45,810 nucleotides of DNA from a virus (Duplodnaviria > Caudoviricetes): the IMG/VR virus record IMGVR_UViG_3300033232_000051, positions 1 to 45,810 of that record; one strand, given 5' to 3'. Under the pieces are notes generated by a model. It ran no database searches and was not told where the DNA came from. It saw only the letters and a list, made by a program, of their open reading frames with translations. Within the stretch, counting starts at the first letter, position 1. Every line of letters begins with the position of its first letter. Positions 7,487 through 45,781 of the stretch are shown piece after piece. A program made the position numbers and the translations under genes.

Positions 7487-7858
7487 CTAACACCCGAACA
7501 CTGTTAATGAGGCGCATCCTAGGATTGCGCCTTTTTCATCCCTGACTAGTTGGTCAGGGATTAAGAAATCGTTTCGGTCGGGGAACGCCTGCCCCACAGC
7601 CAAAGACACGATATACATCGTGCCTTCAACACTTTCGGGAATTTCAGCACTCCCGAAATGTTTGCTGTAAACAGGTATACCGTTTACAGTAAATATTTTT
7701 TTTCTGTCCTCAGACAGTCTTATACTACCCTCGGAAGGGTAGTTCACAACGACTTTATTTGTCGTTGTGTCTATAATCCCTACATTGTGGGGAGTTAAAT
7801 TTATTATTTTTACATTAAACGAATGCAATTGTCCATTCTTATTTATTGTATCTTTCAT
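7487..7858 (-). CDS. Conserved viral protein of the NLTPH...LVRD..G..LGC type; homologue of 42126..42470
   Basis: Strong protein and DNA similarity to 42126..42470; GGTGA SD. Confidence 0.85.
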   Translation of the reverse strand: MKDTINKNGQLHSFNVKIINLTPHNVGIIDTTTNKVVVNYPSEGSIRLSEDRKKIFTVNGIPVYSKHFGSAEIPESVEGTMYIVSLAVGQAFPDRNDFLIPDQLVRDEKGAILGCASLTVFGC

Positions 7859-8031: not shown

Positions 8032-8069
8032 AAATATATATTGTATTATATATTTATAAAGGTTTCGGT
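8032..8069 (-). promoter_or_regulatory. Archaeal-type BRE-TATA promoter (CCGAAACCTTTATAAAT) plus conserved 20-bp downstream element
   Basis: BRE/TATA consensus; the 20-mer is shared with 13944-13963 (identical) and 11205-11224 (one mismatch). Confidence 0.7.
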
Positions 8070-18308: not shown

Positions 18309-18380
18309 CTCTTTATTTCATTATATATATATATGTGTGAAATTACCCACCAATCTTTTATCCACCACAAAAAAAAAAAC

Positions 18381-18755
18381 CTAAACATTTGTTACAGTTA
18401 TGGTTGTTCGAAGCCCGATAGATAACTCTTTTGACACATCTTTTGCGACTGCTGTTGACAATAATATTCTGTTGAACATATTTCCTGCACTTACTGCGTC
18501 AAACAATCCAACCTCTGCAATCGTTGAGCCGTTCCCCTCAGTCAGACCCAATGTTGATGAGAAGTCATAAGTTCCCGAACCTATGTTTTTTATTGCAACC
18601 TCGTCAAATATCTTTCGGATGATTGAAGTTTCAAGGTCAGTATCTGATATAACAGGCGTTGTAGTTCCTGTTCCGAAACCTATATGTGTCCCAGTATCAA
18701 ACTCACCCAGGCTTGCCATCTTAATCGCTGTCAATATCGCACTTGTTACTACCAT
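18381..18755 (-). CDS. Baseplate/tail-fibre attachment protein
   Basis: HIGFGTGTTTPVISDTDL ... IAEVGLFDA..GNMFNR motif typical of tail-collar proteins. Confidence 0.75.
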   Translation of the reverse strand: MVVTSAILTAIKMASLGEFDTGTHIGFGTGTTTPVISDTDLETSIIRKIFDEVAIKNIGSGTYDFSSTLGLTEGNGSTIAEVGLFDAVSAGNMFNRILLSTAVAKDVSKELSIGLRTTITVTNV

Positions 18756-18767
18756 ATATAATCAACC

Positions 18768-27691: not shown

Positions 27692-28016
27692 ATTTGAAAT
27701 ATATGGCAATGTCTTGAATCTTCTCGCCGTCACCCATACCGGAAACCACAATAAACAATGACCCCATAACGTAATAATTGTCTATATGCGTCTGCTCCTG
27801 TGACACAGAAACGATGTTCTTGGGATAAAACCGTGTGACCACACCAGTTAAGTAATCGTCACATAAAACCTCGCCGTCCATAGATGTGATGGTTATCTTG
27901 ACATTAGGCAATGCAACCCCAGAAAACACCACAACCTTGACAACCTCGCCATTAATGTTGTCTAGGTCTCCCTCTATATTCTCGCTAATCTCTCCAGTTG
28001 TATATACATTTGTCAT
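27690..28016 (-). CDS. Small beta-sandwich virion protein (hypothetical)
   Basis: GGTGA SD; beta-rich. Confidence 0.6.
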   Translation of the reverse strand: MTNVYTTGEISENIEGDLDNINGEVVKVVVFSGVALPNVKITITSMDGEVLCDDYLTGVVTRFYPKNIVSVSQEQTHIDNYYVMGSLFIVVSGMGDGEKIQDIAIYFK

Positions 28017-28022
28017 ATAATA

Positions 28023-29876: not shown

Positions 29877-30118
29877 AATAACTCACCTAGCAAAAAAATT
29901 ATTTCGTCTTTTTGTTGTTTTAATTGTATCTGCCTACCTATTTTTGAATCATTTAAAACCATTATTTCATCTGGTTCTTGATTCACAACAGCCAACTGAT
30001 TATTTAATTCTGTTAGTTGTTCATTAAGTTCATCAATAGACACAACATTAATTGGGTCTGGGTTCGCACTTTTTGCATATACTCCACCGTTATCATCACT
30101 AATCTTTATCCAAACCAT
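29870..30118 (-). CDS. Hypothetical coiled-coil protein
   Basis: Overlaps the start of the next gene; heptad pattern. Confidence 0.55.
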   Translation of the reverse strand: MVWIKISDDNGGVYAKSANPDPINVVSIDELNEQLTELNNQLAVVNQEPDEIMVLNDSKIGRQIQLKQQKDEIIFLLGELLW

Positions 30119-30408
30119 ATGGCATCAATCTACATACTTATAACATTTTCCGTTGTACAAAAACATATCATAATCATCTACATATACAGGATTTTCTGTT
30201 TTCTTAATCATAAAATTTATATCTGTAGAAGTTAGATATGACTCGCTTCTATAATAATTCTTAAATTCTGTTAATACACTCATAACATCACTTCAACTTT
30301 TTAATTAAACTATCCTTCATTTTGATGTCTATAATATCATAAGACCACAAAATATTAACTGCTTTAATAACATTGTAATCCTTTTGTATTTTGTCTGTAA
30401 TCTTCACG

Positions 30409-31230
30409 TTACTTCATCTCCAACGCATTTATAATTTTTCCAGACGTTCCACACACCGCATATAAACCACTCTCGCAATCTATGGCATCTTTACCACCCG
30501 CTGGGATTAATATCCCTGTTGTTGTGGTTACATTACTTGCACCATAAAACACGTCTGTGTCGCTCACATTATAGATTATAATTGTTCTACGACCAACTTG
30601 TTCAATTGTCGGAATTAAATAAGCAATGTTTAGTGTTGTTAAGGTTACTGCTGTTGTAACCATTGTTGCCAAAGCATTTGTATTGGTTATAAGTGTATCT
30701 TGTTTCGCAGATGTTGCTTTCCCAGTAGTATCACAAGCAGTTATCTTTCCATCAATACTTGTAGTATCACCAGCAATTGTTGATAATGATGTGTTAGATG
30801 TGTCTTGTTTTTCTTCTGTTGATGCATTAGTTGGTAAATCAACTTTAAACTTATTACTTAGATAATTAAATGTTCTTTGGAATATATCTTCGTGTCTAGA
30901 ACTAATTGTAAAATCATCTGTTATGGGTTCAACAGTTAAATCTTGTGCTGAATAACCAGTAGTAGTATTAACAGTAACAGTAGCGTTCTTATATTTCTTA
31001 ACACTATCTCCAAGTATATAAGCTTCAATTAATATTGGGTCTCCGTTCCGATAACCTTTATAATTTGCTAAATCTATTACATATTCACCGTTAGTGTCCG
31101 TAGATGTAGAACGAGTTTCATTTAAACGTTTATTTGTAACACGGATTGTTGCAGATGCAAGTACAAAAGTACCATCTACATCGTAAATTGTTCCAGAAAT
31201 TGTGTATGGTGTAGCGACCAATATAGTCAC
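30409..31230 (-). CDS. Beta-sandwich virion/surface protein; N-terminus B-specific, C-terminus shared with the A gene at 1..1000
   Basis: N-terminal domain paralogous to 31232..31765 and 31770..32480; 3' part spans the repeat. Confidence 0.75.
   Translation of the reverse strand: MTILVATPYTISGTIYDVDGTFVLASATIRVTNKRLNETRSTSTDTNGEYVIDLANYKGYRNGDPILIEAYILGDSVKKYKNATVTVNTTTGYSAQDLTVEPITDDFTISSRHEDIFQRTFNYLSNKFKVDLPTNASTEEKQDTSNTSLSTIAGDTTSIDGKITACDTTGKATSAKQDTLITNTNALATMVTTAVTLTTLNIAYLIPTIEQVGRRTIIIYNVSDTDVFYGASNVTTTTGILIPAGGKDAIDCESGLYAVCGTSGKIINALEMK
30501..30761. repeat. Direct repeat, copy 2; A/B junction
   Basis: Matches 1..261. Confidence 0.97.
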
Positions 31231-31231
31231 C

Positions 31232-31765
31232 TCATACGTCTGCTTGGATTAATGCTCGCATTGTATTTGCAGAAGGCACAATACATAAACCTTGAACCTT
31301 TATAGGAATTACAAAATTAAAAGGTACTGAACTTGAAGCAACAACCCTAATATCCATAATCTCTAAATCATTAGTTCTATCATAAAATTTCATGTATCCT
31401 ACAGCAGCAGCTGCATTTGTTACAATACCAGATAAGAGTTTCGTATCAAAATAAGCATGACTTGGACCAAACATTAAATATAAATTTTTAGTTTCTGAAC
31501 CACCAACAGTATCAGAAGCACTTGTTGTTGTACGATAATCTATTGACTCGTTACCAAAATAAGCCGATATAAATATTACATCACCAGAATTATAACCAGA
31601 TGATAGGTTAGCTAAATCTAATGAATATTCGCCAGAGGAATTTGTTGTTACGGTTACAGTCTCAGTAGTTCTTTGATTATATGCGATAACAGTAGCTGAA
31701 GCTTTTACTGTACTAGTATCAATTTCATATACTACTCCAGATATAGGGTATGGACTTGCTGGCAT
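31232..31765 (-). CDS. Carboxypeptidase-regulatory/transthyretin-like beta-sandwich protein
   Basis: PYPISGVVY..ATV..N.RT.E..TTNSSGEYSLDLAN..GD. Confidence 0.7.
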   Translation of the reverse strand: MPASPYPISGVVYEIDTSTVKASATVIAYNQRTTETVTVTTNSSGEYSLDLANLSSGYNSGDVIFISAYFGNESIDYRTTTSASDTVGGSETKNLYLMFGPSHAYFDTKLLSGIVTNAAAAVGYMKFYDRTNDLEIMDIRVVASSSVPFNFVIPIKVQGLCIVPSANTMRALIQADV

Positions 31766-31769
31766 AAAA

Positions 31770-32480
31770 TCACTTTAATTGGTATTCTTTGCTAATTACA
31801 TATTTATCATTAACATATACTGGAATAATCTCACCATAACCGTGTGTAATAGGAGACCTATGTACTCTATATATGGAATGTAAATAATCACGACCATAAT
31901 GTCTATGACTTTTTACACTAAATTTAAGTTTACCGTCTTTATCTTTATAAATACTAAGACCGATACCAGTTCCTACTAATAGACCTAATACCATTTCTAT
32001 GATACTATCTAATATTCCTTTATCTGGTAATTCTGTATCTTCACAGATTACTTTTTCTTCACATACTATTGGTTTAGGACAAGTTGTATCTTTACATTCT
32101 GTAACTGGACAGTTTTGTGTTGGACATTCACCAGTCATATCTACCTTAGTTATAGGTATTAGACCACCATTAAATGTTATTTTAGTTGTAACTTCGCCAA
32201 CTATAATTTCAAATCTATCGCCTTCAACAGCTTTTAATACTGTGTTAGACCAATCAATTAGATATTCACCGTTACCATTAGTTGTTCCAATGACTCGTTC
32301 ATTAGTTCTTACGTTAGTAATAACTACATTTAAATTTGATACTGGAACACTGTAAGCTGAGACTTTTACAACGATAGGCATTGGATTAAATACTGCTAAA
32401 GCTGGTGCTGTAAATAATGAAAATATCATTATTAATGTTATAAATTTAAGACCTAGCGATACCCATTGTTGTCGTTCCAT
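31770..32480 (-). CDS. Type I membrane protein: signal peptide, beta-sandwich, Cys/Pro linker, TM, His-rich tail
   Basis: Hydrophobic N-terminus ending APALA; TM IIEMVLGLLVGTGIGLSIY; HRHYGRDYLHSIYRVHRSPITH. Confidence 0.75.
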   Translation of the reverse strand: MERQQWVSLGLKFITLIMIFSLFTAPALAVFNPMPIVVKVSAYSVPVSNLNVVITNVRTNERVIGTTNGNGEYLIDWSNTVLKAVEGDRFEIIVGEVTTKITFNGGLIPITKVDMTGECPTQNCPVTECKDTTCPKPIVCEEKVICEDTELPDKGILDSIIEMVLGLLVGTGIGLSIYKDKDGKLKFSVKSHRHYGRDYLHSIYRVHRSPITHGYGEIIPVYVNDKYVISKEYQLK

Positions 32481-33621
32481 TTACGTTCACCCATACTCCA
32501 TATCCTTTTGGTACTTCTTTTGCACTATTAATTGATAACGCACAAGGGTGTGATATATATCTACTACCACTTGAAGCACTCATATCAACAAAAGTTGCAT
32601 AACTCATTGTTACTGTTGCATTATCTAAAGTCATACCACATATCTGTCCTAGAGTATTTGTAGTTGAATTTTGTAATGCTATCTGATTCCAACCAGATAT
32701 AATTGTTATATTTTTAGTAGGTACATCTGGAATCCAATTTCGTAATAGACTTGCAGTTGCATTTGAATATACATAAACAGCATCACCGTCTGTGACTGCT
32801 GTTGCATTATTAGTAATTGCACCTTCTATATATGTTGTATATGTATGTAATGCATTTGAATATATTGATGTTGAGGTTATTGTACCACTTAAATCAGCTA
32901 CACCTTTTAAAGTAGTAGTTTTATCTGCTAATATTAAATTCCAACCATCATAAATTATAGTTTTAGTCCAGTTAGTTGAATTTACCTCAACAGCTGTGTT
33001 TCCTAGTGAGTCATTTGTACCAACAACGATTTTGAATGTACCAGTCGTGTCAATATCAGCACCAGTTAAGTCAATGGAACATAGTTTACTTACTACAGAA
33101 CCACCCACAGTTGATACTAAAGTTGTAGTATCATCAAATATTTTAGCCCAACAAGCACTTACTATATTAGTTTCAGTAATTGTTGAGTTTACTCTTGCAG
33201 ACATTCCCGTAGCAGTTGAGTAATTATAAATAGTTAAAGCACCTATACTTGGCACAGTTGTATCTACGATTACAGTATGATATGTTGCTTGTGTACATGA
33301 ATGTTCTATATCACAAACCACACCAGTCCAGTTATAATAACCATCGGCTAGTACACCTGTATTAATTGTGAAAGCAACACCACTTGTTACATCGGTAGTA
33401 TTAGTAGTATTTATGCCCCATGTTCCAGAGAAATTACCCCAGATAGAAGCGTTAAGTAATGTTGTATTAGATACACCAGTAAAAGTCATTGCTGGTGTAG
33501 TATTAGTAGTATAATAAGGGTCGTCTGTTGGAGATGAAATAGTCATAGAACTAATAGTTCCTAATGCTACGGAACTGAATAATATGAATACCAAAAACAG
33601 TGCTATATATTTTTTTAACAT
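32446..33621 (-). CDS. Secreted Thr-rich Ig-like surface glycoprotein
   Basis: Signal peptide MLKKYIALFLVFILFSSVALG; more than a dozen N-x-S/T sequons; VDTTVP, GWNLI, GWNQI, GYGVWV motifs. Confidence 0.8.
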   Translation of the reverse strand: MLKKYIALFLVFILFSSVALGTISSMTISSPTDDPYYTTNTTPAMTFTGVSNTTLLNASIWGNFSGTWGINTTNTTDVTSGVAFTINTGVLADGYYNWTGVVCDIEHSCTQATYHTVIVDTTVPSIGALTIYNYSTATGMSARVNSTITETNIVSACWAKIFDDTTTLVSTVGGSVVSKLCSIDLTGADIDTTGTFKIVVGTNDSLGNTAVEVNSTNWTKTIIYDGWNLILADKTTTLKGVADLSGTITSTSIYSNALHTYTTYIEGAITNNATAVTDGDAVYVYSNATASLLRNWIPDVPTKNITIISGWNQIALQNSTTNTLGQICGMTLDNATVTMSYATFVDMSASSGSRYISHPCALSINSAKEVPKGYGVWVNVNGTTTMGIARS

Positions 33622-33652
33622 GTGACCAACCTATTATTTGTTAATACCCTTT

Positions 33653-34033
33653 TTATAAGTTCTTTAATTGTTTTAGTATATTGTCAGCTCGTTTATGTCC
33701 AATACCACTAATAGCAACTAAATCCTCTTTGTTTGCTTTAATTTTCATGTTAACGATTGTTTCATATTTAGTTGCTAAAATTCCGTCTAGTTCACTATCT
33801 ATGCCTTTTAAAACTGTAAAGTCCGATGTTATTTGTTCTGTAACTGGTAATTTGTATTTAGAAGAACTAACTAAACCATGATTTTCACCACGCCAAGCAT
33901 CTTTATCATCTATTTCAACGTCATTTCCAGATTCAACGTGAATCCATCTAAGTGAAGGCCTATTATATTTACCAACAGTTATAGGAATACCTACAGATAT
34001 CATTTTTTTAGTCGGGTTTACAAGTTTCATCAA
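33653..34033 (-). CDS. Protein with C-terminal tandem helix-hairpin-helix motifs
   Basis: DFTVLKGIDSELDGIL and DLVAISGIGHKRADNI. Confidence 0.7.
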   Translation of the reverse strand: MMKLVNPTKKMISVGIPITVGKYNRPSLRWIHVESGNDVEIDDKDAWRGENHGLVSSSKYKLPVTEQITSDFTVLKGIDSELDGILATKYETIVNMKIKANKEDLVAISGIGHKRADNILKQLKNL

Positions 34034-34047
34034 ATCGCCTTTATCAT

Positions 34048-34296
34048 TTAAATACTACCAAATATGATACATTCTATATCATCATTGTTAGTTCCAGTTA
34101 CTGTTATTGTTGTTCCACTTATTGTGTATGTTGCACCATTAATACCTCTAGCAACAATTATTGCAGAAAAAATTTCACTAAGACCATGTTCTACTGTTGT
34201 GATTGTTGAAGTTGTACCAGTTAGTTTAGCTTTTAATACAACCATTCCTAATACACCAGTTACTTCTTTTTTAACTATATTGTCAATTACTGCCAT
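34048..34296 (-). CDS. Small beta-rich virion protein (possible decoration)
   Basis: Downstream of MCP; GAGGT SD. Confidence 0.6.
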   Translation of the reverse strand: MAVIDNIVKKEVTGVLGMVVLKAKLTGTTSTITTVEHGLSEIFSAIIVARGINGATYTISGTTITVTGTNNDDIECIIFGSI

Positions 34297-34338
34297 TTAG
34301 ATTACCTCATAAAATTGGTATTAGGGAATTAACCCTAT

Positions 34339-34584
34339 TTACCATTTACCAAATACTATAGCCATACCAGCACCAGTACCAACTGAAAAAGTTATCGTTT
34401 CAGCAGACTGAGATGCTGGGTCGTTTATACCAGCAGAAGTTTTTGAGATTATCATGTCAATCTCATTAAACTCGCCAGTTGCATCTAGAGTATCTCCAGC
34501 ATAAGCTTTAGTGTAACGGTATACCCACGCATACTCACTACCTAATTCCAATCTTTTTTTAGTTATACTTGTTACAGAAGTCAT
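34339..34584 (-). CDS. Small beta-rich virion protein (possible decoration)
   Basis: Directly downstream of MCP; GGTGA SD. Confidence 0.6.
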   Translation of the reverse strand: MTSVTSITKKRLELGSEYAWVYRYTKAYAGDTLDATGEFNEIDMIISKTSAGINDPASQSAETITFSVGTGAGMAIVFGKW

Positions 34585-34601
34585 TTAATATCACCTATAA
34601 T

Positions 34602-35705
34602 TTAAGCACACCCATATATCCTATAACAACGTGTTTCATCTACGATAATCATAGTAAGATATGATTTTATCATAAATTTATAGGAATCAGATGTTTTTGC
34701 TAATTCTTCAAATACAGCGTCTTGTAAAACTCTCATTTGAATGTTTGCACCACCCATACCAGAACTTGTATCTAGTATAAGCATTTCTCTACCAGAACCA
34801 GATGTTGGCATGAATAAATCTGGCATTATTGGTACACCCTCATAAAGAATGTTCTCAATACCAAAGTTTACTGTAGCTGTAGGTGCTGGGTATCTTAAGA
34901 CATCAAAGATAAGACCTTTAACATCAGATAGCGTTTTGTAATCAGTTACACAAATTGTTGGTCTTCCATAAGCTTCACGAATAGTTCTGAAAGCATCAGT
35001 TATATTCTGTAGACTTATTTTTGCACCAGATTTGTTTGTTGTGTTAGTTGTAATACCATTAATCAAACCAGTAAAACCTCGTACATCAGTTACACTACCA
35101 TCATAATCATCAACAGTTGGATTACCATTAATAATCAAATTCTCTTCAAGTTCTTTCAAAGCTTGATACTCAGAAGGAATCATTAAATTAAGTGCGTCTT
35201 TCCATTGCTGTGCAGATGCAACTTGCATTGGACCAGATACTTCACCAACTGCATAGATGTAACTCATCTTTTGTGCAGAACGTGCATATGTAGCCGTACT
35301 TGAATTTAAACCACCCATTTCACCATTAACAACTGCTGTTGCTGGTGCAGTCATAGTAATGTAATCAGCGAATAATCCTTTATTAGTCATTCTAGGAATT
35401 ATACCCGATGCTAAAGGAGTATCTCGTTTAGTCAAGTCATAAAGAACTGGGTCAACTATTGTTGGTAACAATACTGGTATACTACCACTTGTACCAGAAT
35501 ATGTTGTTCCAGTAGCCATCAAAGGACTTGATGTAGTAAGAGCAGATTTTATTTCTAGTCTCTTATCAATTTGTAAACTTTTAACTTCTGTTATTGGTGT
35601 GTGAAGATATACTGTCTTATCTGGTGTGTCACCAAATGAAGATGTATATGATACTTCTCCGTTAACGGAATTTATAGAATCTATACCTGTATTCATAATA
35701 ATCAC
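34602..35705 (-). CDS. Major capsid protein (B), HK97 fold, no evident similarity to MCP A
   Basis: Follows the protease; PTIVDPVLYDLTKRDTPL, ELEENLIING, GFTGL, YEGVPIMPD, FEELAKTSDSYKFMI. Confidence 0.85.
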   Translation of the reverse strand: MIIMNTGIDSINSVNGEVSYTSSFGDTPDKTVYLHTPITEVKSLQIDKRLEIKSALTTSSPLMATGTTYSGTSGSIPVLLPTIVDPVLYDLTKRDTPLASGIIPRMTNKGLFADYITMTAPATAVVNGEMGGLNSSTATYARSAQKMSYIYAVGEVSGPMQVASAQQWKDALNLMIPSEYQALKELEENLIINGNPTVDDYDGSVTDVRGFTGLINGITTNTTNKSGAKISLQNITDAFRTIREAYGRPTICVTDYKTLSDVKGLIFDVLRYPAPTATVNFGIENILYEGVPIMPDLFMPTSGSGREMLILDTSSGMGGANIQMRVLQDAVFEELAKTSDSYKFMIKSYLTMIIVDETRCYRIYGCA

Positions 35706-35706
35706 T

Positions 35707-36606
35707 CTATTTCATTTTTGCTTCAACTATCATATCAACAAAACTTTTTGGTTCAGATTTAACTTCAAGTTGTGGTGAAGCATCTACCAATGGTTTCTGT
35801 TTATCAACAGCTGATACTGCTTCTGCTATCATAGATTTAATTTCGTCTTTTGAAATTTTATCTTCTTTAACAGTAGTTTCAATCTTTGATTTTATCTCTG
35901 AAAGTTCTTTATCTTTAGAAGCTAGTTCTAATTTAAGAGTTTCAAGTTGTGATTTGATTTCGTCTAGATCAGAATCAGTCATAACTTCTGGAGTTTCAAC
36001 TGTAGGTTCTGGTGTGACGATACCATCATCTACAACACCGTTTTCGTCTTCGTTGGACATATCATCTACCTCAATTTTAGATTTCACAAAGAAATCTGTG
36101 ATTTTACAAGCTTCACATGCGGGTTTGCCAGTTAAAGCAACACCACCTAGTTGTATCTTGTTTAGTACTCTTATATTTTTACCATTTATGTTAGTGTTTA
36201 TGTATTCTTTAGGTTTAAATTCCATTGAAAATGCATCAATGAAACCATCTTGGATTGAACCCCAAAGATTTTTAAATTCAGTATGGTGTTTGTTTAATTG
36301 TACTCGTATAAATAAGTTTTTGGATTTTATCTCAGCACTAATGATTTTTGCTTTAGGAACTATTGTGTTATCGCCTTTGAAATATTGTTCGTGTTCTTCA
36401 TTACCTTTCAATGCACCGGAAAAGTTAGAATCTACATTCCTACCATTAATTTGCTGTGCCATATCTTGTATACATTCTTCAGTAACCATATCATTTACTG
36501 AATCTAGATAATTAGCAACTTCTAAAATACCTTCAACATAATGATTCCCATTATCGGATTTAAATTCAAATGTATTTGGATATACTTTGATTTTTTTGAA
36601 GTCCAT
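35707..36606 (-). CDS. Prohead protease with scaffold tail (B)
   Basis: DSVND, EEH, DAFSMEF, GVALTGKPA; acidic linker and coiled coil. Confidence 0.85.
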   Translation of the reverse strand: MDFKKIKVYPNTFEFKSDNGNHYVEGILEVANYLDSVNDMVTEECIQDMAQQINGRNVDSNFSGALKGNEEHEQYFKGDNTIVPKAKIISAEIKSKNLFIRVQLNKHHTEFKNLWGSIQDGFIDAFSMEFKPKEYINTNINGKNIRVLNKIQLGGVALTGKPACEACKITDFFVKSKIEVDDMSNEDENGVVDDGIVTPEPTVETPEVMTDSDLDEIKSQLETLKLELASKDKELSEIKSKIETTVKEDKISKDEIKSMIAEAVSAVDKQKPLVDASPQLEVKSEPKSFVDMIVEAKMK

Positions 36607-36652
36607 AGATTTATCACTTTTTATCTTACTATTATTAAAATTGAATTACTTA

Positions 36653-38200
36653 TTAAAAGTTATTCATATTTTTTGTTCGTTGTTTAACATATTCTTGAAA
36701 TGGACCGTCTGATTTGACTTGAACATTCTTATCTTGTTTAACTTTATCTTGTGCGAGTTTATCTGTACTTTCAGTTAGCATTTGATGATTATTAAGTTGA
36801 TTTTGACGATTTGTACTATTACCTTGCATTATAATTTTTTCTTTATGTTCTTCAACGTCAGTATCAATCAAACCCATTTCATGTAATAATTTATCTTTAG
36901 TAAGCCGTAAATCATATCGTGCAAGAATATCTTGGTTTTTAGTTAAAGTGTCAGCTCTCATCATAGCGATTTGAGTTTCTCGCACTTCATCTTGTTTATA
37001 CGTTCTATTAAATCGTAATGTGACTTTATACTCATCTAGTAACTGAGAATTTATCATATCCTCATAAATATTTTGAATATGTCCTACCTTCCTATAATAA
37101 CCTTCGGTTGATGTATTACTTCCAGTCACACCAGTACCGACCAATAAATCACTTAGACGTGAACTAGGAATACTCCAGACCATAACCATTAATTGAGTTA
37201 GATATCTAGCAAGTTCTCTGAACTCCATATCGTGGTCCATTTTATTTAGTTCTTTGACTTCAACTTTTCCAGTTAAAACTAGATTTTTATACTTATGAGT
37301 GATGTTAGCATATTGTTGAATAGCTTTCTTCATTTCCTTGTAATCGTTATCGGATGAGTTTGCATCTTCCATTATGAACATATAATTTGGTACGCCACCT
37401 TTCCTAAAATAATATCTGGTATAATCACGGATATCATCTAAAACGTCCATAATAGTTAAAAGAGATTGTGTTGGGGAATATCCATAGACTTTACCGTTAA
37501 TACGCATTAATCTAAAGTGAACTATCTGTTCTGGAGTGAACATAACACTCTCAGCACTATTCATTGGTCTCTGGATATAATGTTGTACGTCTCCATATTT
37601 ATTAGCAGTAATCTTTATTGTTGATGATGGAATATCAATAAACTGTCGTGTGGAAAATAGGTCTTCCTCAGTTGATTTTATAACTAGTTCGGTTAAATCC
37701 GAAATGGATTTCTGTTCATAACCATTATGACGTTTCTTAATAACCCTTGTTAGACTTTTACGGAAATCTGATTTTGTAAATGAATCTTTCCAAATATAAC
37801 CGTCCCCAGTTAAAAGTGTATCTATTAAAACTGAATGTAAGATTTCTTTAGCATGGTTATCACTTAGGAATTTCTCAGCACGTTGTACGTTATTACGACC
37901 ACCTTCAAGTCTCCAACCGTCACTTATAATGTCGTCAACGATTGCAGTTAAGATTGCTTGTAATTCTGGTGATGCCTTGAAATATGCCCAAAGAGTATCG
38001 TAATCAACTTCGGGGCCTCTACCGTATGGTGTAGCTATGACTGGTGACGGATTTTCGTTTGATAACGGAAAAGAATTAGAAACGGATTTTATTTCTGTTG
38101 TATTGCTTATTAACACGTTATCATTAAATGATTTCAAACTATTAGTAAATGAATCATATACTTTTCTCAAATAAGGATTATTATTGCTATTCATAACCAT
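36653..38200 (-). CDS. Portal protein (B)
   Basis: TLLTGDGYI, FTPEQIVHF, YGYSP, YFRKGGVP, DMEFREL. Confidence 0.9.
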   Translation of the reverse strand: MVMNSNNNPYLRKVYDSFTNSLKSFNDNVLISNTTEIKSVSNSFPLSNENPSPVIATPYGRGPEVDYDTLWAYFKASPELQAILTAIVDDIISDGWRLEGGRNNVQRAEKFLSDNHAKEILHSVLIDTLLTGDGYIWKDSFTKSDFRKSLTRVIKKRHNGYEQKSISDLTELVIKSTEEDLFSTRQFIDIPSSTIKITANKYGDVQHYIQRPMNSAESVMFTPEQIVHFRLMRINGKVYGYSPTQSLLTIMDVLDDIRDYTRYYFRKGGVPNYMFIMEDANSSDNDYKEMKKAIQQYANITHKYKNLVLTGKVEVKELNKMDHDMEFRELARYLTQLMVMVWSIPSSRLSDLLVGTGVTGSNTSTEGYYRKVGHIQNIYEDMINSQLLDEYKVTLRFNRTYKQDEVRETQIAMMRADTLTKNQDILARYDLRLTKDKLLHEMGLIDTDVEEHKEKIIMQGNSTNRQNQLNNHQMLTESTDKLAQDKVKQDKNVQVKSDGPFQEYVKQRTKNMNNF

Positions 38201-38234
38201 ACGCCTATTATTATATCATTTTGCTTATTATAAG

Positions 38235-38549
38235 TTATTGAAAATGTATGAAACCACATCTTTCACATTTCAATCGTTTACGGTCTTTTAAATCGTTACG
38301 CTTTAGATTTTTTATTCTTACGACACCACACGAATCACATTGAATTTTTCCAGAGACTAACGTTACGTCCTTTTTACCGTTATCCCAACCCCAACTACGT
38401 TTCATTAAACCATTACAGGGTATGTAGTTTTTACAAGCATTACAATTTAATAACGCATCTTCAACGGTTAAAATCTTAGTATGCTTAAAAATACATAACT
38501 TTTCACCGTTTGCCCGATTAATACAATTTTTACAACCTATAAGTACCAC
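38235..38549 (-). CDS. Multi-CxxC zinc-finger protein
   Basis: CKNC, CNAC, CDSC, CERC. Confidence 0.65.
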   Translation of the reverse strand: MVLIGCKNCINRANGEKLCIFKHTKILTVEDALLNCNACKNYIPCNGLMKRSWGWDNGKKDVTLVSGKIQCDSCGVVRIKNLKRNDLKDRKRLKCERCGFIHFQ

Positions 38550-38554
38550 CTAAA

Positions 38555-38629
38555 TAACGTGATGTGGGTTTGAACCACAGAACTTCGGATTATGAGTCCG
38601 ATGAAATAACCAAGCTATTCTATCATGTT
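38555..38629 (-). tRNA. tRNA with CAT anticodon (Met, initiator-like; Ile2 not excluded), no encoded CCA
   Basis: Cloverleaf: acceptor AACATGA/TCACGTT (one A.C mismatch), anticodon arm TCGGA-CTCATAA-TCCGA, T arm TGTGG-TTCAAAC-CCACA. Confidence 0.85.
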
Positions 38630-40105
38630 TTAACACACATCAAAACTATATGAACTCTTTTTTGAATATGACGCCTCTAAAGCCATACCAAGACTCATTA
38701 CACAATCATCTTTATTACCGACACCCTCATAAGTCTCTTTCAATACCCTACCCATTAAATCCTTACGAACAACTTTTGAGAAACTGCGGAGTTCATTTAT
38801 CAATATCTCGTTATCCAATAAAATTAAAGTTCCAGTACTTAACGCAGACTGGATATTAGCTATTAATAGTTCTTTATTTGCTTGGGTTGTAATAAATCCT
38901 TTCATTACACTTTTTGTCTCTTGCATTTCCGTTAACGTTCTAACTAGACCTTTACTGAGTCCGTTCTCTTCAATTACAATCTGACGGAAGTTAAATATCT
39001 TATGAAGCTTAACAATACGTTCAATCTGTCTTTCAGTCTTCATTCCTTGATATCGTTCCAGTTTGACTATATATTGTGTTCCTTCAGGATTTACACCAAT
39101 TATCGTGTATACTGAGAAATCTGCTTTAGATTGGTCTGCAAGTGCGATATCACCACCCATATAATAAATCCAACCATCTCTAGGTTTATTTTGTATCTCA
39201 ACGTGACGATTCTCTAACAAGTTCTCAGTAAAGATACTAGAACCACCAGCCAGCGGATTACACATATATTCCCTATCAAAACGTAAGCCACCCATTAATG
39301 CACGAGTAGCTTTCAAGTTATCTAGAGACCCAAATTGTGGGTGGTCTTTCCATAACGGTGCTATCCATTTACCGTTTTTATCCGTTATAGCCGCTTGCCA
39401 TCGTCCACCGACCGGAGTAAGTCGTGCTTTTTTTAGGACTTCTTTAATTTCCTTTGAAGGGTATTGTAAATCGTTAAGTAAGTCATCTGTAGTCATCGGT
39501 GTACCTACAAGGACTATCTGACCTCTACCCATGTCACTCGCCGGGAAAATAACGTTCCAGAATAAATCTTTTACTTGGTCTTGCGTATATTTCTCGTCTC
39601 TAAGAATATCATCACAAATTGTGAAATTAGGACGTACACCACGACTTGTAGGTTTTAATGGTTTTACGAATGCCATATTACCAGTCACGGTTTCTAACTG
39701 TCTCGTGTTCCATTTCATATCCGTTCCCTCTGGACGGAGGTTTTTAAAAAAGGGGTTATTCATTATGATGTCGTGGACTTGTTTTAAGTTACTCTCAGTC
39801 TGTTCACGACTTGCACTAAACATTGCTATCTTACATTTCTTCTCACGCCAGAGTCGCCAGAGAACGTAACCAACTGAAACGTTTGTGGTTTTACCGAAAC
39901 CACGAGGTAAGATTAAATAAACGATTTGACCAGAGAAAAGGTAATTAGTCATGTCAACGTGGAATGGTGCGAACTTAATATCAAAAACGCCTTCAATGAA
40001 AACTTGAAGACTAAAATATGCTTTCTGACGAAATAATGCCTCATCAATCGGTGTTGCAAAGTTCATCATTTTTTCCCAACACCATGTATCGTAACTGAGT
40101 ATCAT
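38630..40105 (-). CDS. terL: Terminase large subunit (B); true start probably near 40069
   Basis: LPRGFGKTT Walker A, SRGVRP..ICDDI, VGTP, GGDIA, DFS, IEEN, DDCVMSL. Confidence 0.93.
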   Translation of the reverse strand: MILSYDTWCWEKMMNFATPIDEALFRQKAYFSLQVFIEGVFDIKFAPFHVDMTNYLFSGQIVYLILPRGFGKTTNVSVGYVLWRLWREKKCKIAMFSASREQTESNLKQVHDIIMNNPFFKNLRPEGTDMKWNTRQLETVTGNMAFVKPLKPTSRGVRPNFTICDDILRDEKYTQDQVKDLFWNVIFPASDMGRGQIVLVGTPMTTDDLLNDLQYPSKEIKEVLKKARLTPVGGRWQAAITDKNGKWIAPLWKDHPQFGSLDNLKATRALMGGLRFDREYMCNPLAGGSSIFTENLLENRHVEIQNKPRDGWIYYMGGDIALADQSKADFSVYTIIGVNPEGTQYIVKLERYQGMKTERQIERIVKLHKIFNFRQIVIEENGLSKGLVRTLTEMQETKSVMKGFITTQANKELLIANIQSALSTGTLILLDNEILINELRSFSKVVRKDLMGRVLKETYEGVGNKDDCVMSLGMALEASYSKKSSYSFDVC

Positions 40106-40685
40106 TTATCGTTATCTTCTTTTCATGAACTAAATCCTCTAGGAATTTCTGTGAAGCAACATTGAACTCGCTAGTCATCATAATAGAACGCATGTCATAA
40201 GTGATACTGACAGCACTTTTTAACATATCAAGCTTTTCCATAGCAGTTCGTAACTGACTATGGAACTCTCGTATAGAAATCATTAATTCTCGTGAATATG
40301 TGTCGGGGTCGGCATAGTACCGTTCAATTAACTTTCGGTTGATGCCGTGCAACCATTCAAACTCTTCGGCAACACGATTACTGGAATCTAGGATAGTTTG
40401 GACTTGTTCTTGTTGCTGGGTTGTAGTCTTTGAGATTTTATGGATATTCTTTTTCCATGTACCTAAAGTGACAAGGGTTGGGATTTTCTCAAAACCATCT
40501 TTTCGCAAAGCGTTACGGATGTACGCAGCTTTATGACCTTCAGCGATATATTTTAAAGAACGCATTTTAATGTCGTTAGAATAAGGTTCAAAAACCGTTG
40601 CATACTTGGAATCTTTAAGACGGACTTTATCTGATTTTTCTTGTCGGATTCTGGCAGCTTCAGTATTATCAGAAACTTCTACCAT
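40044..40685 (-). CDS. Putative terminase small subunit (B)
   Basis: Upstream of and overlapping TerL; HTH-like segment plus helices; has its own TATA promoter. Confidence 0.6.
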   Translation of the reverse strand: MVEVSDNTEAARIRQEKSDKVRLKDSKYATVFEPYSNDIKMRSLKYIAEGHKAAYIRNALRKDGFEKIPTLVTLGTWKKNIHKISKTTTQQQEQVQTILDSSNRVAEEFEWLHGINRKLIERYYADPDTYSRELMISIREFHSQLRTAMEKLDMLKSAVSITYDMRSIMMTSEFNVASQKFLEDLVHEKKITINDTQLRYMVLGKNDELCNTD

Positions 40686-40699
40686 AAATGGATTTATGT

Positions 40700-40723
40700 T
40701 TTCTTACTTTATAAATCTTTTGA
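40700..40723 (-). promoter_or_regulatory. BRE-TATA promoter (CAAAAGATTTATAAAG) for the B packaging operon
   Basis: TTTATAAA at 40708-40715, about 23 nt upstream of ATG 40685 (leaderless spacing). Confidence 0.65.
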
Positions 40724-40767
40724 TGTTACAAGGTAGGGCTAACATATTCCCGACGTTAGGAAAACGA

Positions 40768-40905
40768 TTATAAGAACGTTTTATAATTCTCGCCACAACG
40801 AAGACAACCACAAGAACCAGTACAAGTCGGTCCAACACAGTCTTCGTTCAAGTGACAAGTACAATTACTAGTCGCTATTACTTTCTCGGGAATGTCGTCT
40901 GGCAT
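40768..40905 (-). CDS. 45-aa Cys-rich peptide MPDDIPEKVIATSNCTCHLNEDCVGPTCTGSCGCLRCGENYKTFL
   Basis: Manual translation; AAGGTGA SD; 7 Cys. Confidence 0.6.
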   Translation of the reverse strand: MPDDIPEKVIATSNCTCHLNEDCVGPTCTGSCGCLRCGENYKTFL

Positions 40906-41009
40906 AATGTGTCACCTTGTTTCCTATCTACAAGTTGGTACTTTAACTCAAACAACAACAAACTCAAACAAAAGAGGAAGATTATAGTAAAGAGGAGTTC
41001 TAGTATCAT
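40878..41009 (-). CDS. 43-aa single-TM peptide MILELLFTIIFLFCLSLLLFELK...
   Basis: Manual translation; hydrophobic N-terminus; overlaps the next ORF. Confidence 0.45.
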   Translation of the reverse strand: MILELLFTIIFLFCLSLLLFELKYQLVDRKQGDTLCQTTFPRK

Positions 41010-41111
41010 ACAAGTCGCCTGTGATTAGGACCTTGGAGTGATGTGTTCACACCCCTACAGTCTTACGAACAACCCTCAAAGACCAGAGGTATCGTCAAAA
41101 AGATATTACAT

Positions 41112-41136
41112 TTTTCAATTATTAAAAGTTTCGGTG
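41112..41136 (-). promoter_or_regulatory. BRE-TATA promoter (CCGAAACTTTTAATAA)
   Basis: Archaeal consensus pointing into the two micro-ORFs. Confidence 0.55.
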
Positions 41137-41614
41137 TTATTTAGATATCGTTGCATATACTTTTAAATAGATGAAAATGTATTAAATTAAGTGGTAGGAT
41201 ACGCTTTAATACCTTTTTCTTATCCTACCAACCCCCTATTTATACACAGTTGTCACTTTTAAAACGGACAACTTAGGTCGGAAAATTGCCGATAACGAAA
41301 ATGCATAAAAACCTCGGGGAAATTAAAGTACAAAAAAATCTGAAAAAAAACGAAACGATATCGGGGGGGTGTCATCAATATTCAGTAAAAATGGCGAGAA
41401 AATTATTTGGATACCTATTATACCCCCTACCCTTAAAGTTAGGCACTATACCCCCCCCTTGTTACTACTATATAATGACATATGCATATCTCACTATATT
41501 AATATATAAGTATAAAACTATAAAACTAGTACAATAGTGAAACAAGACCGATAACTATATAAAGCAGCCTGAACAATATATATTATAAACCAATAGGGGT
41601 TTATGAGGGGGTTA

Positions 41615-41838
41615 GAGTCATACAGTACTAGCTAAGGCTATGATGTACTTTATTATGGCTCCGCTCGTGGTAGGCAGTTGACGTAAACAGCGTCAGCTCA
41701 CAACATCGTATAGCACGGTGAACTTTAGGGATTGACTATTTTGACAAACATATGTATATAAATGGAACGCGGAAGCCTACTCCGTATCGTTACTGTCAAG
41801 TATGTTATGATGTCATAGGTCGGCTCGTCATTATCCTT
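41615..41838 (+). ncRNA. Candidate structured non-coding RNA
   Basis: GC-richer ORF-free island with nested stems, G.U pairs on the + strand and a possible pseudoknot. Confidence 0.35.
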
Positions 41839-42125
41839 AGATACAAGTATTTAAGGGGGTTTTGGGGGGGGTTAATACCCCCCTTTATATTTAGATAGCT
41901 CAGAGTGGTATACTGCTCTGAGTCTACATATAACACGTTTTTTATTAAGGGTTTAATATCCCCTCTATAAAGCGTGTGATTTTGAAAAGTAATTTTATAA
42001 GATTTATAATTACTTTGAAAGGTCTTGTATGTATTATCAAGGCGTATTTGTTTTATAATACCCTTGTGAAATTAGATAAATATAAATTCTAGTCTTTAAT
42101 AGACTAGTTAAAGGAGGAGATAAAA

Positions 42126-42470
42126 ATGAATAATAAAAATCTAAAAATTAGAAATATGACCCCTCACGATGTGGGGGTTATAGATAAAACGACTAATAAA
42201 GTCGTTATAAACTACCTTTCAGAAGGTAGCATAAGGCTAACTGAAGAGAGAGAGTTTTTATATACTGTAAACGGCGTATCTGTTTATAGCAAAACTTTCG
42301 GGAGTGCTGAAATTCCCGAAAAAGTTAAAGATACGATGTATATCGTGTCTTTGGCGGTCGGGCAGGCCTATCCTGAGCGTACAGATTTCTTAATTCCGGA
42401 CCAATTGGTTCGGGATGAAAAAGGGGTAGTCTTAGGATGCACCTCTTTTACGGTTTTTAGTAATTACTGA
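42126..42470 (+). CDS. Conserved viral protein (NMTPH...LVRDEKG), homologue of 7487..7858
   Basis: AAGGAGG SD; homology to the A copy. Confidence 0.85.
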   Translation: MNNKNLKIRNMTPHDVGVIDKTTNKVVINYLSEGSIRLTEEREFLYTVNGVSVYSKTFGSAEIPEKVKDTMYIVSLAVGQAYPERTDFLIPDQLVRDEKGVVLGCTSFTVFSNY

Positions 42471-42477
42471 AATAGAG

Positions 42478-42660
42478 GTGTTTAAAATGGAAAGTATTTT
42501 AAAAAAAATTATCAAAATTGGAAGGTCAAAAGGGATAATTATCCCTTTTCATCTATTCAATTCTTATAAAAATATAAAGCCCTCTGATTATGTAACGGTC
42601 ACATATATCGGCACAACGGGCGATATTGTTATATCTCGGCTTGAGATAGAACAAAATTAA
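42478..42660 (+). CDS. AbrB/MazE-like DNA-binding protein
   Basis: KKIIKIGRSKGIIIP...DYVTV swapped-hairpin signature. Confidence 0.7.
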   Translation: MFKMESILKKIIKIGRSKGIIIPFHLFNSYKNIKPSDYVTVTYIGTTGDIVISRLEIEQN

Positions 42661-42667
42661 GAAAAAA

Positions 42668-42913
42668 ATGGGAAAAAAACTTTATTTAATTAAGAAAGAT
42701 GGAAGAAAAATAACAATAATTCCGTCCGGATGGATTGATTCGGATGGTGATTATTGTCAGGATATCCGAAGAAATCCGACCACAAAACGGTTTGAATATT
42801 TTAGTTATTTTACAGGTTTTGAGAAATATGCTGAATATCTGAATCTGGTATATGGTAAAACCGTAAAAGAGGTCATAGAAGACCTGGAAGAAAGATGTGG
42901 TTATATAGAGTAA
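42668..42913 (+). CDS. Hypothetical protein
   Basis: Operon-coupled ORF. Confidence 0.6.
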   Translation: MGKKLYLIKKDGRKITIIPSGWIDSDGDYCQDIRRNPTTKRFEYFSYFTGFEKYAEYLNLVYGKTVKEVIEDLEERCGYIE

Positions 42914-42957
42914 GAACATAACTTTGAAAGTTGATTATATAATAAAAGGTAAGAGAA

Positions 42958-43395
42958 ATGAAAACGATTATTAAAAAGACTGAAACAATAAATATGAAAA
43001 TATCACGGTGTCCTATTGGACTAGAGATATACATAAAAAGTCCTGTTATAGAGGACTTTTTTAAAGGTTTGGCTCAGGGTGTGGTATCCACATCAACCGA
43101 AAGTAATTGGTTACCCCATAAGGGCTATACCCCTCAGGGCAATATAGAACATATTGCCAATACCCATTTTGATAATTGGGGGGGTTCTTTAGTTCAGAAG
43201 GGATATTATAATTTGTCTATGCTCCGGACTGTTGGCTTGAGTAAAGGACAAACCTTTAGATTCAAGGGAGTGTTTTCTAAAAACATGATAGAAAACATTG
43301 CAACAGAATTTAAAACCGTCTTAATTACGCTCATAAAAAATTATGTTAAACCTATGGAAGTAACCATTAAGGTTTATAGTAATGAAATAATTTAA
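42958..43395 (+). CDS. Hypothetical protein
   Basis: Operon-coupled ORF upstream of the amidoligase. Confidence 0.7.
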   Translation: MKTIIKKTETINMKISRCPIGLEIYIKSPVIEDFFKGLAQGVVSTSTESNWLPHKGYTPQGNIEHIANTHFDNWGGSLVQKGYYNLSMLRTVGLSKGQTFRFKGVFSKNMIENIATEFKTVLITLIKNYVKPMEVTIKVYSNEII

Positions 43396-43404
43396 GGTGT
43401 TTAA

Positions 43405-44058
43405 ATGGGATATAAATATATAAATAAAATAGGTATAGAAATAGAGGGAGGTTGGATACACTCCTTTATTTTAAAATATCTAAAAGGAGATGGTTCCGTA
43501 CATATCAATAATATGAGATGTTATGATGACGACGATGATGAGGATGAGGATTATAATGAACCCTATGGGTATTCCGGCGAAGTTTGTAGTGAACCTATAA
43601 ATATTCAGGAGGGTATTGAATATATAAATAACTATTATCCCGATGAGTTTAATGAAACTTGTGGGATTCATTTCCATATATCATTTAAAAACAATAAATA
43701 CGCCTCTATATTAACAGATAAACGGTTTTATGAGATGTTTATTAAAGACTTTACTGTTTGGGGATTAAAACAGAAAATAGATTCTAGTTCTTTATTCTGG
43801 ACCCGTTTAAACGGGAAAAATCAATTCTGTAAAAATATATTTAATCCGGACGGTCAGATATTACAAAACGATAGTAGATATACACAAATAAACTTTTGCT
43901 CATTAAAAAAACATAACACAGTTGAATTTAGAGTATTTCCGGTATTTGATAAAAAGCATCAAACTGTAAGTGCTTTAAAAAAATTAGTATCTATAATTAA
44001 TAAATTTATCGATAAATGTAACAAAGAGTATTCTGAAAAAATAACAATTAACATATAA
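43405..44058 (+). CDS. Putative amidoligase (glutamine synthetase-like COOH-NH2 ligase)
   Basis: GIEIE, DGS, GEVCSEP, TCGIHFHIS, RY..IN, TVEFR. Confidence 0.85.
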   Translation: MGYKYINKIGIEIEGGWIHSFILKYLKGDGSVHINNMRCYDDDDDEDEDYNEPYGYSGEVCSEPINIQEGIEYINNYYPDEFNETCGIHFHISFKNNKYASILTDKRFYEMFIKDFTVWGLKQKIDSSSLFWTRLNGKNQFCKNIFNPDGQILQNDSRYTQINFCSLKKHNTVEFRVFPVFDKKHQTVSALKKLVSIINKFIDKCNKEYSEKITINI

Positions 44059-44074
44059 GGGGGAGTGGATAATT

Positions 44075-44827
44075 ATGTGTATAGTATTAGTATGTAAAAC
44101 AGAAAAACCTACAATGGAAATTCTCAAAAATTGTGAAGAATCAAATGGCGATGGTGCCGGGATATCATGGCGAGAAGGAAATAAAATAAAATGGTCTAAA
44201 GGACATAATGCAGAAGAGATTTATACATTAAGTCAGTCTGTTGAATTGCCTTTTATAGTTCATTTTAGATTCGCCACAGTCGGAGGTTCTATAAAGGAAC
44301 TATGTCACCCTTTTAGTGTAACAAAAGATGTTAAAACAACATTAAAAGGTAGTGCAAAAGAGGTTATAATGCATAACGGTCATTGGTCCAATTGGTCTGA
44401 AGCTTTAAAAAACAATATGATATGTTCTAGTGCTAGAATACCTACGGGGGTATGGTCGGATACACGAGCTATTGCATATTTTACAAATAGATGCGGTTCA
44501 GGATTTTTACAGATGTTAGATGAAAAGGTTGTATTGTTTAATATGAAACATATAACTATATTTGGTTCTGGTTGGACTGAAGAAGATAATGGTATTATTT
44601 ATTCAAATACAGAGTATAAAGGTCGTTATAAAAGTGTATATCGTGAAGAAAAATGGACTAATAGACACTATAGAAACGGATATTATAAAAAAAATGGACA
44701 TTCTTATGGTCAGGATTATGAAGATAATACGCTAGAAGATGAAGAAAAGGAATTTGAAACAGATAGATTGGATAAAGATGAAAAATGTAAAAATGCTACA
44801 ATCTGTATGGCGGAATATATGGATTAA
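44075..44827 (+). CDS. Class II (Ntn) glutamine amidotransferase
   Basis: N-terminal Cys2, NGDGAG, HFRFAT, HPF, HNG, SDT. Confidence 0.9.
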   Translation: MCIVLVCKTEKPTMEILKNCEESNGDGAGISWREGNKIKWSKGHNAEEIYTLSQSVELPFIVHFRFATVGGSIKELCHPFSVTKDVKTTLKGSAKEVIMHNGHWSNWSEALKNNMICSSARIPTGVWSDTRAIAYFTNRCGSGFLQMLDEKVVLFNMKHITIFGSGWTEEDNGIIYSNTEYKGRYKSVYREEKWTNRHYRNGYYKKNGHSYGQDYEDNTLEDEEKEFETDRLDKDEKCKNATICMAEYMD

Positions 44828-44839
44828 GGGGGTGTTATT

Positions 44840-45313
44840 ATGGATAAATTATTAGAAAATAAAGATGTAACTAAAACTATAAATGATTATGACTTATTAT
44901 TTGTATATGGAACTTTACGAAAATCCGGTAGTTTACATAAACTGTATTTAACCGATGCAATTTATAGTACTACAATAAAATTAAGTGGTGTTAAATTGTA
45001 TGAGTCTCAACTCCTACCTGTTGCCGTTTTGACTAAAAAGGATAAACATAAGATTAAAGGGGAGTTATATTATGTTCTTAAAACGGATATGCTCTCTATA
45101 GACAGATTAGAAAGTAGTTATAGAAAAGTTAAATTAACCGTTGCGATTAGCGGGTATAGTGAAAAACAAGAAGTTATAATGTATGTTAAAAAAACAACAG
45201 AAATTATAAATTTACAACCTTATCGTATTAAATCTGGCGATTGGATATTACATCAAAAGATTTTTGAAGATAAAGTTAATAAAATGTGTGAAGAAGAACG
45301 GTTTTGTATGTAA
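44840..45313 (+). CDS. Gamma-glutamylcyclotransferase (AIG2-like)
   Basis: FVYGTLR, GELY, IDRLE..YR. Confidence 0.9.
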   Translation: MDKLLENKDVTKTINDYDLLFVYGTLRKSGSLHKLYLTDAIYSTTIKLSGVKLYESQLLPVAVLTKKDKHKIKGELYYVLKTDMLSIDRLESSYRKVKLTVAISGYSEKQEVIMYVKKTTEIINLQPYRIKSGDWILHQKIFEDKVNKMCEEERFCM

Positions 45314-45369
45314 GACCAAAATCTATTTATACTCACAAAACAAATAACAATATAAGGGGGGTTATTAAA

Positions 45370-45552
45370 ATGAAATATAAAAATATAGAACGATTAATAA
45401 AATGGCATTACAAATACACAGAGATTTGTAAGCATAGTGCAACAGACTTTGTAAATAGATGTTTGCAAGGAAAATCTGAAATTAAAAAGCTAGAAACTAA
45501 CATAGTTTATGTGTGTCCGCCTTGTAAGGAAATGGTTGAATTGGTGGATTAA
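45370..45552 (+). CDS. Hypothetical protein (likely start MKYK at 45370)
   Basis: AAGGGGG SD as in the neighbouring genes; CPPC. Confidence 0.5.
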   Translation: MKYKNIERLIKWHYKYTEICKHSATDFVNRCLQGKSEIKKLETNIVYVCPPCKEMVELVD

Positions 45553-45781
45553 ATGGGGTTAGATATGTATTTAAAGGCTTCTAAGTTTTTTATTAATAAT
45601 GATAATGAACTCAAAGATAAACTTAAAAAGTTAATCAAGATTAATTTGGAGCCAATTAAAATAACCTTTAATGTTATGTGTTGGCGTAAATCAAATGCTA
45701 TTCATAAATGGTTTGTTAATAATGTTCAGTCCGGTGTTGATGATTGTAAAGATTATAATGTAACCATAGACGATTTGAAGG
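45553..45781 (+). CDS. Conserved phage hypothetical protein (MGLDMYL...WRKSNAIHKWF), truncated
   Basis: Recognisable phage motif; the apparent C-terminus IGRAHV* is adapter-derived. Confidence 0.7.

Follow-up and report, generated by a model that had tools for sequence, protein, structure and literature searches.

The window, by which we mean the whole 45,810-nucleotide stretch of DNA analysed here, is one 45.8-kb contig carrying two tailed-virus head-gene sets, with two terminases and two major capsid proteins, and each of its two viruses, A and B, holds a copy of a small gene of the crn4 family. The copy in virus B (42126..42470, plus strand) encodes 114 aa and that in virus A (7487..7858, minus strand) 123 aa. 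The DNA likeness of the A gene to the B gene is limited to 7497-7816 (79%), the two proteins are 71-72% identical, and a dN/dS of 0.23 indicates purifying selection. Since the similarity between A and B ends at the edges of the gene, crn4 seems to have moved between viruses as a unit. An earlier note on this DNA had described both genes as chains of adjacent stem-loops, and we found both reading frames and the listed stems in place, CTACCTT-TCAG-AAGGTAG at 42212-42229 among them.

In virus B, a Shine-Dalgarno-like GGAGG and the start codon of crn4 (42110..42128, plus strand) are mostly unpaired by prediction. Upstream, non-coding DNA at 41801-41950 is structured (z -5.3 against base shuffles), and is followed by an imperfect palindrome at 41983-42014 around an AT-rich promoter-like site, a possible operator for the AbrB-like gene that comes next after crn4. 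This gene (42478..42660, plus strand, 57-60 aa) is itself structured (z -5.6), and its product weakly resembles AbrB-family regulators of archaea (E 0.55-0.95), which gives no more than a lead. The same operon includes a structured orphan gene (42958..43395, plus strand, z -5.1 to -5.6), for whose 145-aa product no family was found. A 17-nt perfect inverted repeat links the 3' end of crn4 (42441-42457) with a gene that lies on the same strand 400 nt downstream (42857-42873), and would compete with the last of the hairpins described below, hairpin 10. Further along, a rightward operon at 43405-45313 carries amidoligase, glutamine amidotransferase and gamma-glutamyl cyclotransferase genes consecutively, and a related ligase-GATase pair sits after crn4 in two of the loci that we surveyed (L111 and L112). 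A tRNA gene occupies the terminase-portal interval of virus B (38555-38629).

In virus A, a BRE/TATA-like motif (8055..8068, minus strand) lies about 200 nt upstream of crn4, with a similar motif at 41121-41134; the pattern was derived from these same two sites, which makes its chance figure circular. The earlier note had given the A copy a promoter cassette of its own: the TATA-like motif is there, and from it such a promoter may be read. A 110-bp palindromic element, present twice (79-84%) at 6182-6291 and 16187-16303, flanks a 10-kb block of virus A comprising crn4, polB, helicase and primase, and could possibly represent an origin or the ends of a module. Non-coding DNA at 6448-6610 contains about 3.3 copies of a 49-bp tandem repeat. 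Positions 1-261 of the window recur at 96% within a tail-region gene (30501-30761); judging from this repeat, the genome of virus A may be a circle of 30.5 kb (1-30500) linked to B through the repeated stretch, in which case the two-virus contig may be an assembly join.

The contig was binned in a 1.77-Mb genome bin, 84% complete, that bears mcrA, and therefore a methane-cycling archaeon is the likely host, a link made by binning alone; contig and remainder of the bin have no sequence in common, and their GC contents are 36.5% and 41.0%, respectively. Searches of the 84%-complete bin for Cas10 and RAMP genes came back empty; the bin has four short periodic repeats, and Cmr2 and Cmr3 are encoded by G006, a genome of the same genus. 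With capsid, terminase, polB and primase genes on the contig and no RAMP gene in the bin, crn4 is here borne by mobile elements and lies outside a CRISPR locus. Searching window positions 1-19900 and 27700-45781 in 24 relatives revealed no array-borne match; there were short weak matches only, and none of the 12 loci checked among them lay within a CRISPR array.

What does the gene encode? A six-sequence profile searched against the PDB matched Crn4b (9r7b, E 1e-16, over profile positions 4-108 of 109) and Crn4a (9sma, E 5e-11), as well as 9qs9, and no other PDB entry. The structure prediction proposed in the earlier note yielded an AlphaFold model of the protein with a pLDDT of 93.8 and the Crn4 fold, i.e. 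β-strand pairs, a long hairpin arm and one short helix. Foldseek with this model recovered 9r7b (E 7.6e-10, TM 0.76); all seven matches with E up to 0.001 were Crn4 chains, and the next, unrelated match had an E of 0.34. Thr12, His14 (codon 42165-42167) and Arg96 (codon 42411-42413) of the virus B protein make up the Crn4 catalytic motif (Thr13, His15 and Arg112 in Crn4), and are invariant in 33 of 33 aligned proteins. Among the binding residues, Ser91 is kept (Ser75 here), Arg92 is replaced by Leu76, and Glu16 by Asp in B and Asn in A; according to the consulted portion of the Crn4 paper, Arg92 of Crn4a contacts adenine, and many of the contacts made by Ser91, Arg92 and Glu16 are main-chain (PMC12830947). 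The family is large, with 8761 clusters at 50% identity. Pfam has no family for the Crn4-like protein, PHROGs has two unnamed families and the Atlas unnamed viral clusters; scanning viral contigs with the single protein gave no relatives.

Crn4 is described as a dimer that acts as a ring nuclease on cA3, cA4 and cA6, and to which His15 and Arg112 are essential (Chi et al. 2025, PMC12830947). The same work, carried out with codon-optimised genes, describes Crn4a from Actinomycete CRISPR loci, reports a plasmid assay in which Crn4 relieves type III immunity, and names phage and plasmid copies as likely anti-CRISPRs, as yet unconfirmed (PMC12830947). Given Crn4 homology with the catalytic His and Arg kept, the gene product is a Crn4 ring nuclease homologue and a likely anti-type III CRISPR enzyme, and the earlier guess at an anti-defence gene is thereby supported by profile search and Foldseek alike.

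The second property of this gene is its folding. Against dinucleotide shuffles, the folding z is -7.5 for B and -7.9 for A, with none of 100 shuffles as stable in either case; against synonymous-codon permutations that keep the protein and the codon counts, the comparison suggested by the earlier note, it is -7.2 and -7.9 (0/150 each), and permutation costs the gene 45-50 kcal/mol of folding. The two copies rank first and second among 98 in-frame tiles cut from the 49 ORFs of the window (median z -0.46, at 12 shuffles per tile), and the excess holds from 15 to 75 C. In B, 131 of 345 bases (about 40%) are unpaired, half of them A. Opening 32 nt of the message, roughly the length of a guide, would cost a median of 12.6 kcal/mol in B and 14.6 in A; recoded versions require 8.6 and 9.1, and 28 other genes of the window 5.5-10.1. 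The start regions of both copies are predicted to be mostly open. The chain of about nine strong hairpins is thus real in both copies, in the sense of a predicted structure, all of the pairing described here being computed.

We regard it as highly improbable that this folding arises as a side effect of the protein sequence, of codon usage or of base composition. Conserved peptides do predispose two of the helices to form, helices 7 and 9 being 64% and 74% paired even in shuffles; however, the synonymous permutations, none of which was as stable in 150, largely refute this reading, structure is lacking in many homologues that share the motifs, and third positions differ between A and B at 5 of 31 sites in shared stems as opposed to 37 of 82 elsewhere, a partly circular comparison. 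Selection on both the protein and its single-stranded structure, as the earlier note put forward, is therefore upheld by the excess over the synonymous null, the dN/dS and, as described below, conserved and covarying helices.

Along the plus strand of B, hairpin 1 (42155..42182, -14.7 kcal/mol) spans the NxTPH codons, and its register is lost in relatives. Hairpins 2 (42188..42206), 3 (42212..42229), 5 (42265..42289) and 6 (42296..42321) have A counterparts at 7745-7769, 7724-7743, 7665-7689 and 7631-7661, respectively, hairpin 3 with one two-sided U-A to C-G change. Hairpin 7 (42324..42355) spans DTMYIVSL and keeps its register in relatives (72% paired versus 64% in the null); the core of hairpin 8 (42363..42375) spans QAYP and extends further in relatives, where two of the pairs covary (84% versus 70%); and hairpin 9 (42393..42416), which spans IPDQLVRD including the catalytic Arg codon, is the best conserved (98.8% versus 73.6%). 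At the place of hairpin 10 (42419..42449), A has a hairpin in a different register (7510-7532). Of the 102 confident pairs of B, 70 are unchanged in A, 11 preserved through a change on one side, 4 through changes on both sides and 17 broken. Compensation between the two copies is thus real, if modest.

Comparison across relatives refines this picture. When the helices defined in B were scored in 18 held-out homologues, all with 42% identity or more, helices 7, 8 and 9 beat the synonymous null (0/300 each), and helices 1, 2, 3, 5, 6 and 10 showed no excess over it in the B register. In a 16-sequence alignment, 24 two-sided changes fall in helices 7-9, where shuffles have 11.5, and the covariation score is 0.258 compared with 0.179 (0/500; slid controls at most 0.159), by a control that ignores relatedness and with helix 8 extended after inspection of the alignment. 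The covariation anticipated in the earlier note is therefore present in three of the helices, while the other six shift their register. Outside helices 7-9, relatives form register-shifted hairpins of their own at about the same codons.

One of the roles once proposed, a dual-function RNA with a single conserved fold, is rejected, since RNAalifold retains one helix over the 16 sequences; three of nine helices stay in register and six shift, and Rfam covariance models run over the window left crn4 unmatched, the sole match being the tRNA. Could helices 7-9 instead be a specific regulatory element, a protein site or a ribosome pause, perhaps for feedback by Crn4 itself or by the AbrB-like neighbour, with the other hairpins incidental? 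Helix 9 is paired at its 98.8% even with the weakly structured relatives L088 and L089 included, and Crn4 cleaves linear poly(A) slowly (reported in the consulted part of PMC12830947). However, loop sequences vary among relatives, most of the 45-50 kcal/mol excess resides in helices whose register shifts, and the peptide encoded at helix 9 is itself conserved, its codons still pairing at 74% after shuffling; we consider such an element improbable. As the 3' helices alone keep their register and covary, and the others shift, it is folding as such that seems to be selected: a pairing density across the whole coding region, rather than one fold.

On which strand does this structure act? In a strand-symmetric count over the stems of 31 structured relatives, G-U mismatches outnumber A-C by 87 to 21, a fraction of 0.81 against 0.52 +/- 0.05 in the null, and 44 unstructured crn4 genes have 42 G-U and 33 A-C (0.56 against 0.49). 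This bias indicates sense-strand RNA, and points to a structure acting on the coding strand across the family, most simply as mRNA. Within the window the signal is mixed: against synonymous permutations, the antisense z is -3.8 in B (sense -7.2) and -7.95 in A (sense -7.9), and the A and B stems together have 10 G-U and 5 A-C mismatches, as in the null (0.67 versus 0.69). The excess of G.U deviations on the sense strand described in the earlier note thus stands for B and for the family, and falls away for A, which folds equally on both strands.

The same data bear on another proposed role, in which the structure acts in single-stranded DNA or cruciforms during entry, replication or cassette movement of the gene. 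Folded as DNA, the sense strand of B still has a z of -5.8 (antisense -4.5), several relatives resemble A in folding equally on both strands, and the A/B similarity that stops at the gene edges could be read in this way. Against this stand the family-wide bias towards G-U on the coding strand and the gene content, both viruses carrying portal, terminase and capsid genes of tailed dsDNA viruses, the DNA of which is normally not single-stranded during entry; folded DNA is therefore disfavoured, and we hold it to be distinctly improbable.

How common is a structured crn4? We scored 112 loci with 25 shuffles each, 105 of them distinct, and found z below -4 in 33 of the 105, or 31 of 103 once the window's own two are set aside. 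By clusters at 60% identity, the mean z is below -4 in 15 of 58, and at least one member is below -4 in 20 of 58. The closest metagenomic relatives reach -8 to -13.6, and 10 of 68 IMG/VR loci fall below -4. Among copies scored separately, 3 of 8 Bacillota loci are below -5, the ten named phage and plasmid copies divide into five between -3.6 and -4.5 and five between -0.9 and +1.4, and three copies from archaeal genomes range from -0.2 to -1.6. Most family members, including many homologues with the same motifs, are thus without strong structure. On a quick and poorly resolved tree, built from 102 rows after 3 short ones had been dropped, the structured label changes 15 times, at least 5 of these forced by strong branches, and structure has therefore been gained or lost several times, in a direction that the tree does not give.

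The neighbours of crn4 are central to what we consider the main rival, in which the protein is the same likely anti-CRISPR and the hairpins serve general stability or expression tuning of early transcripts against housekeeping RNases, independently of CRISPR. In B the folding excess covers about 41800-43300, taking in two further operon genes of unknown role; the gene directly downstream of crn4 is equally structured in several relatives (-5.4, -7.0, -9.4, -10.2); and neighbours as a whole have a median of -1.1 against -0.46 for the window, with 17 of 202 below -4. Yet in A crn4 alone is structured, with polB tiles at -0.9 to +0.5 and 6847-7377 at 0.06, and across the family the z of crn4 lies below that of the genes beside it in 25 of 38 clusters (median -1.98 versus -1.20, p 0.01), a modest paired excess. 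The structured neighbours could moreover be anti-defence genes too. Strongly structured genes beside crn4 (z -7 to -10), mostly without a known family, are candidates for this role: L003:2566-2940, L031:2352-2948, L048:1185-1643, L075:1673-2431, L084:514-1038, L111:1729-2862 and L129:1435-2025.

Also set against general stability is a contrast between mobile and cellular copies in two unrelated families of ring nucleases, in small samples. The crn4 genes beside cas6 (L093, L096 and L097), one of them also beside a CARF gene, have z of 0.03, -1.45 and 0.23, a weak control because the three loci, one of them partial, seem to belong to a single lineage with 74-76% GC. The second family is DUF1874 (PF08960), a domain that we take to be AcrIII-1. 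Among copies from 9 of 301 genomes, six amid housekeeping genes lie at -1.0 to +0.3, and three amid mobile-looking genes at -2.4, -4.4 and -5.4. At L146-L152, six Bacillota DUF1874 genes stand alone among housekeeping genes, with no CRISPR locus within 1.5 kb on either side. The DUF1874 gene of phage THSA-485A is the most structured of 34 genes scored (-4.1), and a methanogen-virus copy is at -2.5; unstructured are the copies of STIV (+0.5) and SIRV2 (+1.1), as well as SIRV2 gp48 (-0.5), presumably AcrIIIB1. In Bacillus phage Shbh1 (L123:1070-1612), a Cas_VVA1548 gene, which we take to encode the Csx16 ring nuclease, lies two genes upstream of crn4, and both are unstructured. Weighing both sides, we find general stability unlikely as the explanation of the hairpins, though still to be taken seriously.

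The reading to which we give about an even chance is that of a viral Crn4 anti-CRISPR whose hairpin-chain mRNA slows both guide-RNA pairing and RNase attack. Type III CRISPR detects RNA, and a ring nuclease must therefore be read from a molecule that is itself open to targeting. In our scenario crn4 would be expressed early; ribosomes would load at the open start region and melt each stem of 7-14 bp in passing, and a message not being translated would refold immediately. A crRNA, requiring some 30 nt of free target, would face a higher barrier on such a folded message, which would set off less alarm and suffer less cutting until the enzyme had accumulated. The barrier would be kinetic only, because the hairpins of the target are much less stable than a complete guide duplex. 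Counting against this reading are the many family members that lack strong structure, the frequent structure of neighbouring genes, the small CRISPR-associated control, the blank searches for type III genes in the 84%-complete bin and for array-borne matches in the 24 relatives, the sizeable unpaired fraction, and the Leu in place of Arg92. There are precedents for such an effect: target structure lowers activation of the type III-B Cmr complex, for one guide by two orders of magnitude (Gruschow et al., PMC8682760, in the part consulted), and is described as a kinetic barrier for Cas13 (PMC12584110, likewise).

More broadly, and with rather less confidence than an even chance would warrant, we propose that mobile elements have repeatedly rewritten anti-type III genes as hairpin chains, so that the message escapes the very system that its protein disarms. 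If this were true, counter-defence would be written in synonymous sites, forming a layer missed by protein-level screens and erased in codon-optimised test genes, and excess folding of coding regions would flag further anti-defence genes, such as the structured neighbours here. Folding excess could then serve as a sequence-only marker of anti-defence cassettes. A titles-level literature search, which covered few subscription papers, found no paper on hairpin-tiled anti-CRISPR coding regions.

How does this gene compare with known systems? The viral occurrence of Crn4 is already predicted in print (PMC12830947, in the portion consulted), and our protein resembles Crn4 (Unk01; PDB 9r7b, 9sma, 9qs9), most closely the Crn4b subfamily, in profile, fold, size, the Thr/His/Arg motif and the binding-site Ser. 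It differs from the Crn4 of that paper, as far as the consulted text goes, in residing in two archaeal-type tailed viruses and outside a CRISPR locus, in having Leu in place of the Arg92 contact, in its hairpin-packed coding strand, and in being known from sequence and model alone (PMC12830947); Crn4 is now placed in viruses binned with an mcrA-bearing archaeon. AcrIII-1/Crn2 (DUF1874), described as cA4-specific in the same portion of that paper (PMC12830947), is likewise a small viral ring nuclease against type III signalling, with a coding region structured in some copies (THSA-485A, and L149 and L154 at -4.4 and -5.4); its fold, however, is unrelated to that of Crn4, and the STIV and SIRV2 copies are unstructured. 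The structured 5' UTRs of acr-aca operons (PMC13551039, part consulted) also tie RNA structure to anti-CRISPR expression, whereas here the structure tiles the coding region, leaves the start open and follows no fixed motif. Finally, the target occlusion of Cmr (PMC8682760) and Cas13 (PMC12584110) illustrates the same principle, that paired targets activate less; in the consulted parts of these papers it is shown in vitro for diagnostics, and not as a virus-evolved trait inside an anti-CRISPR coding sequence, which is what the crn4 genes of these two viruses may represent.
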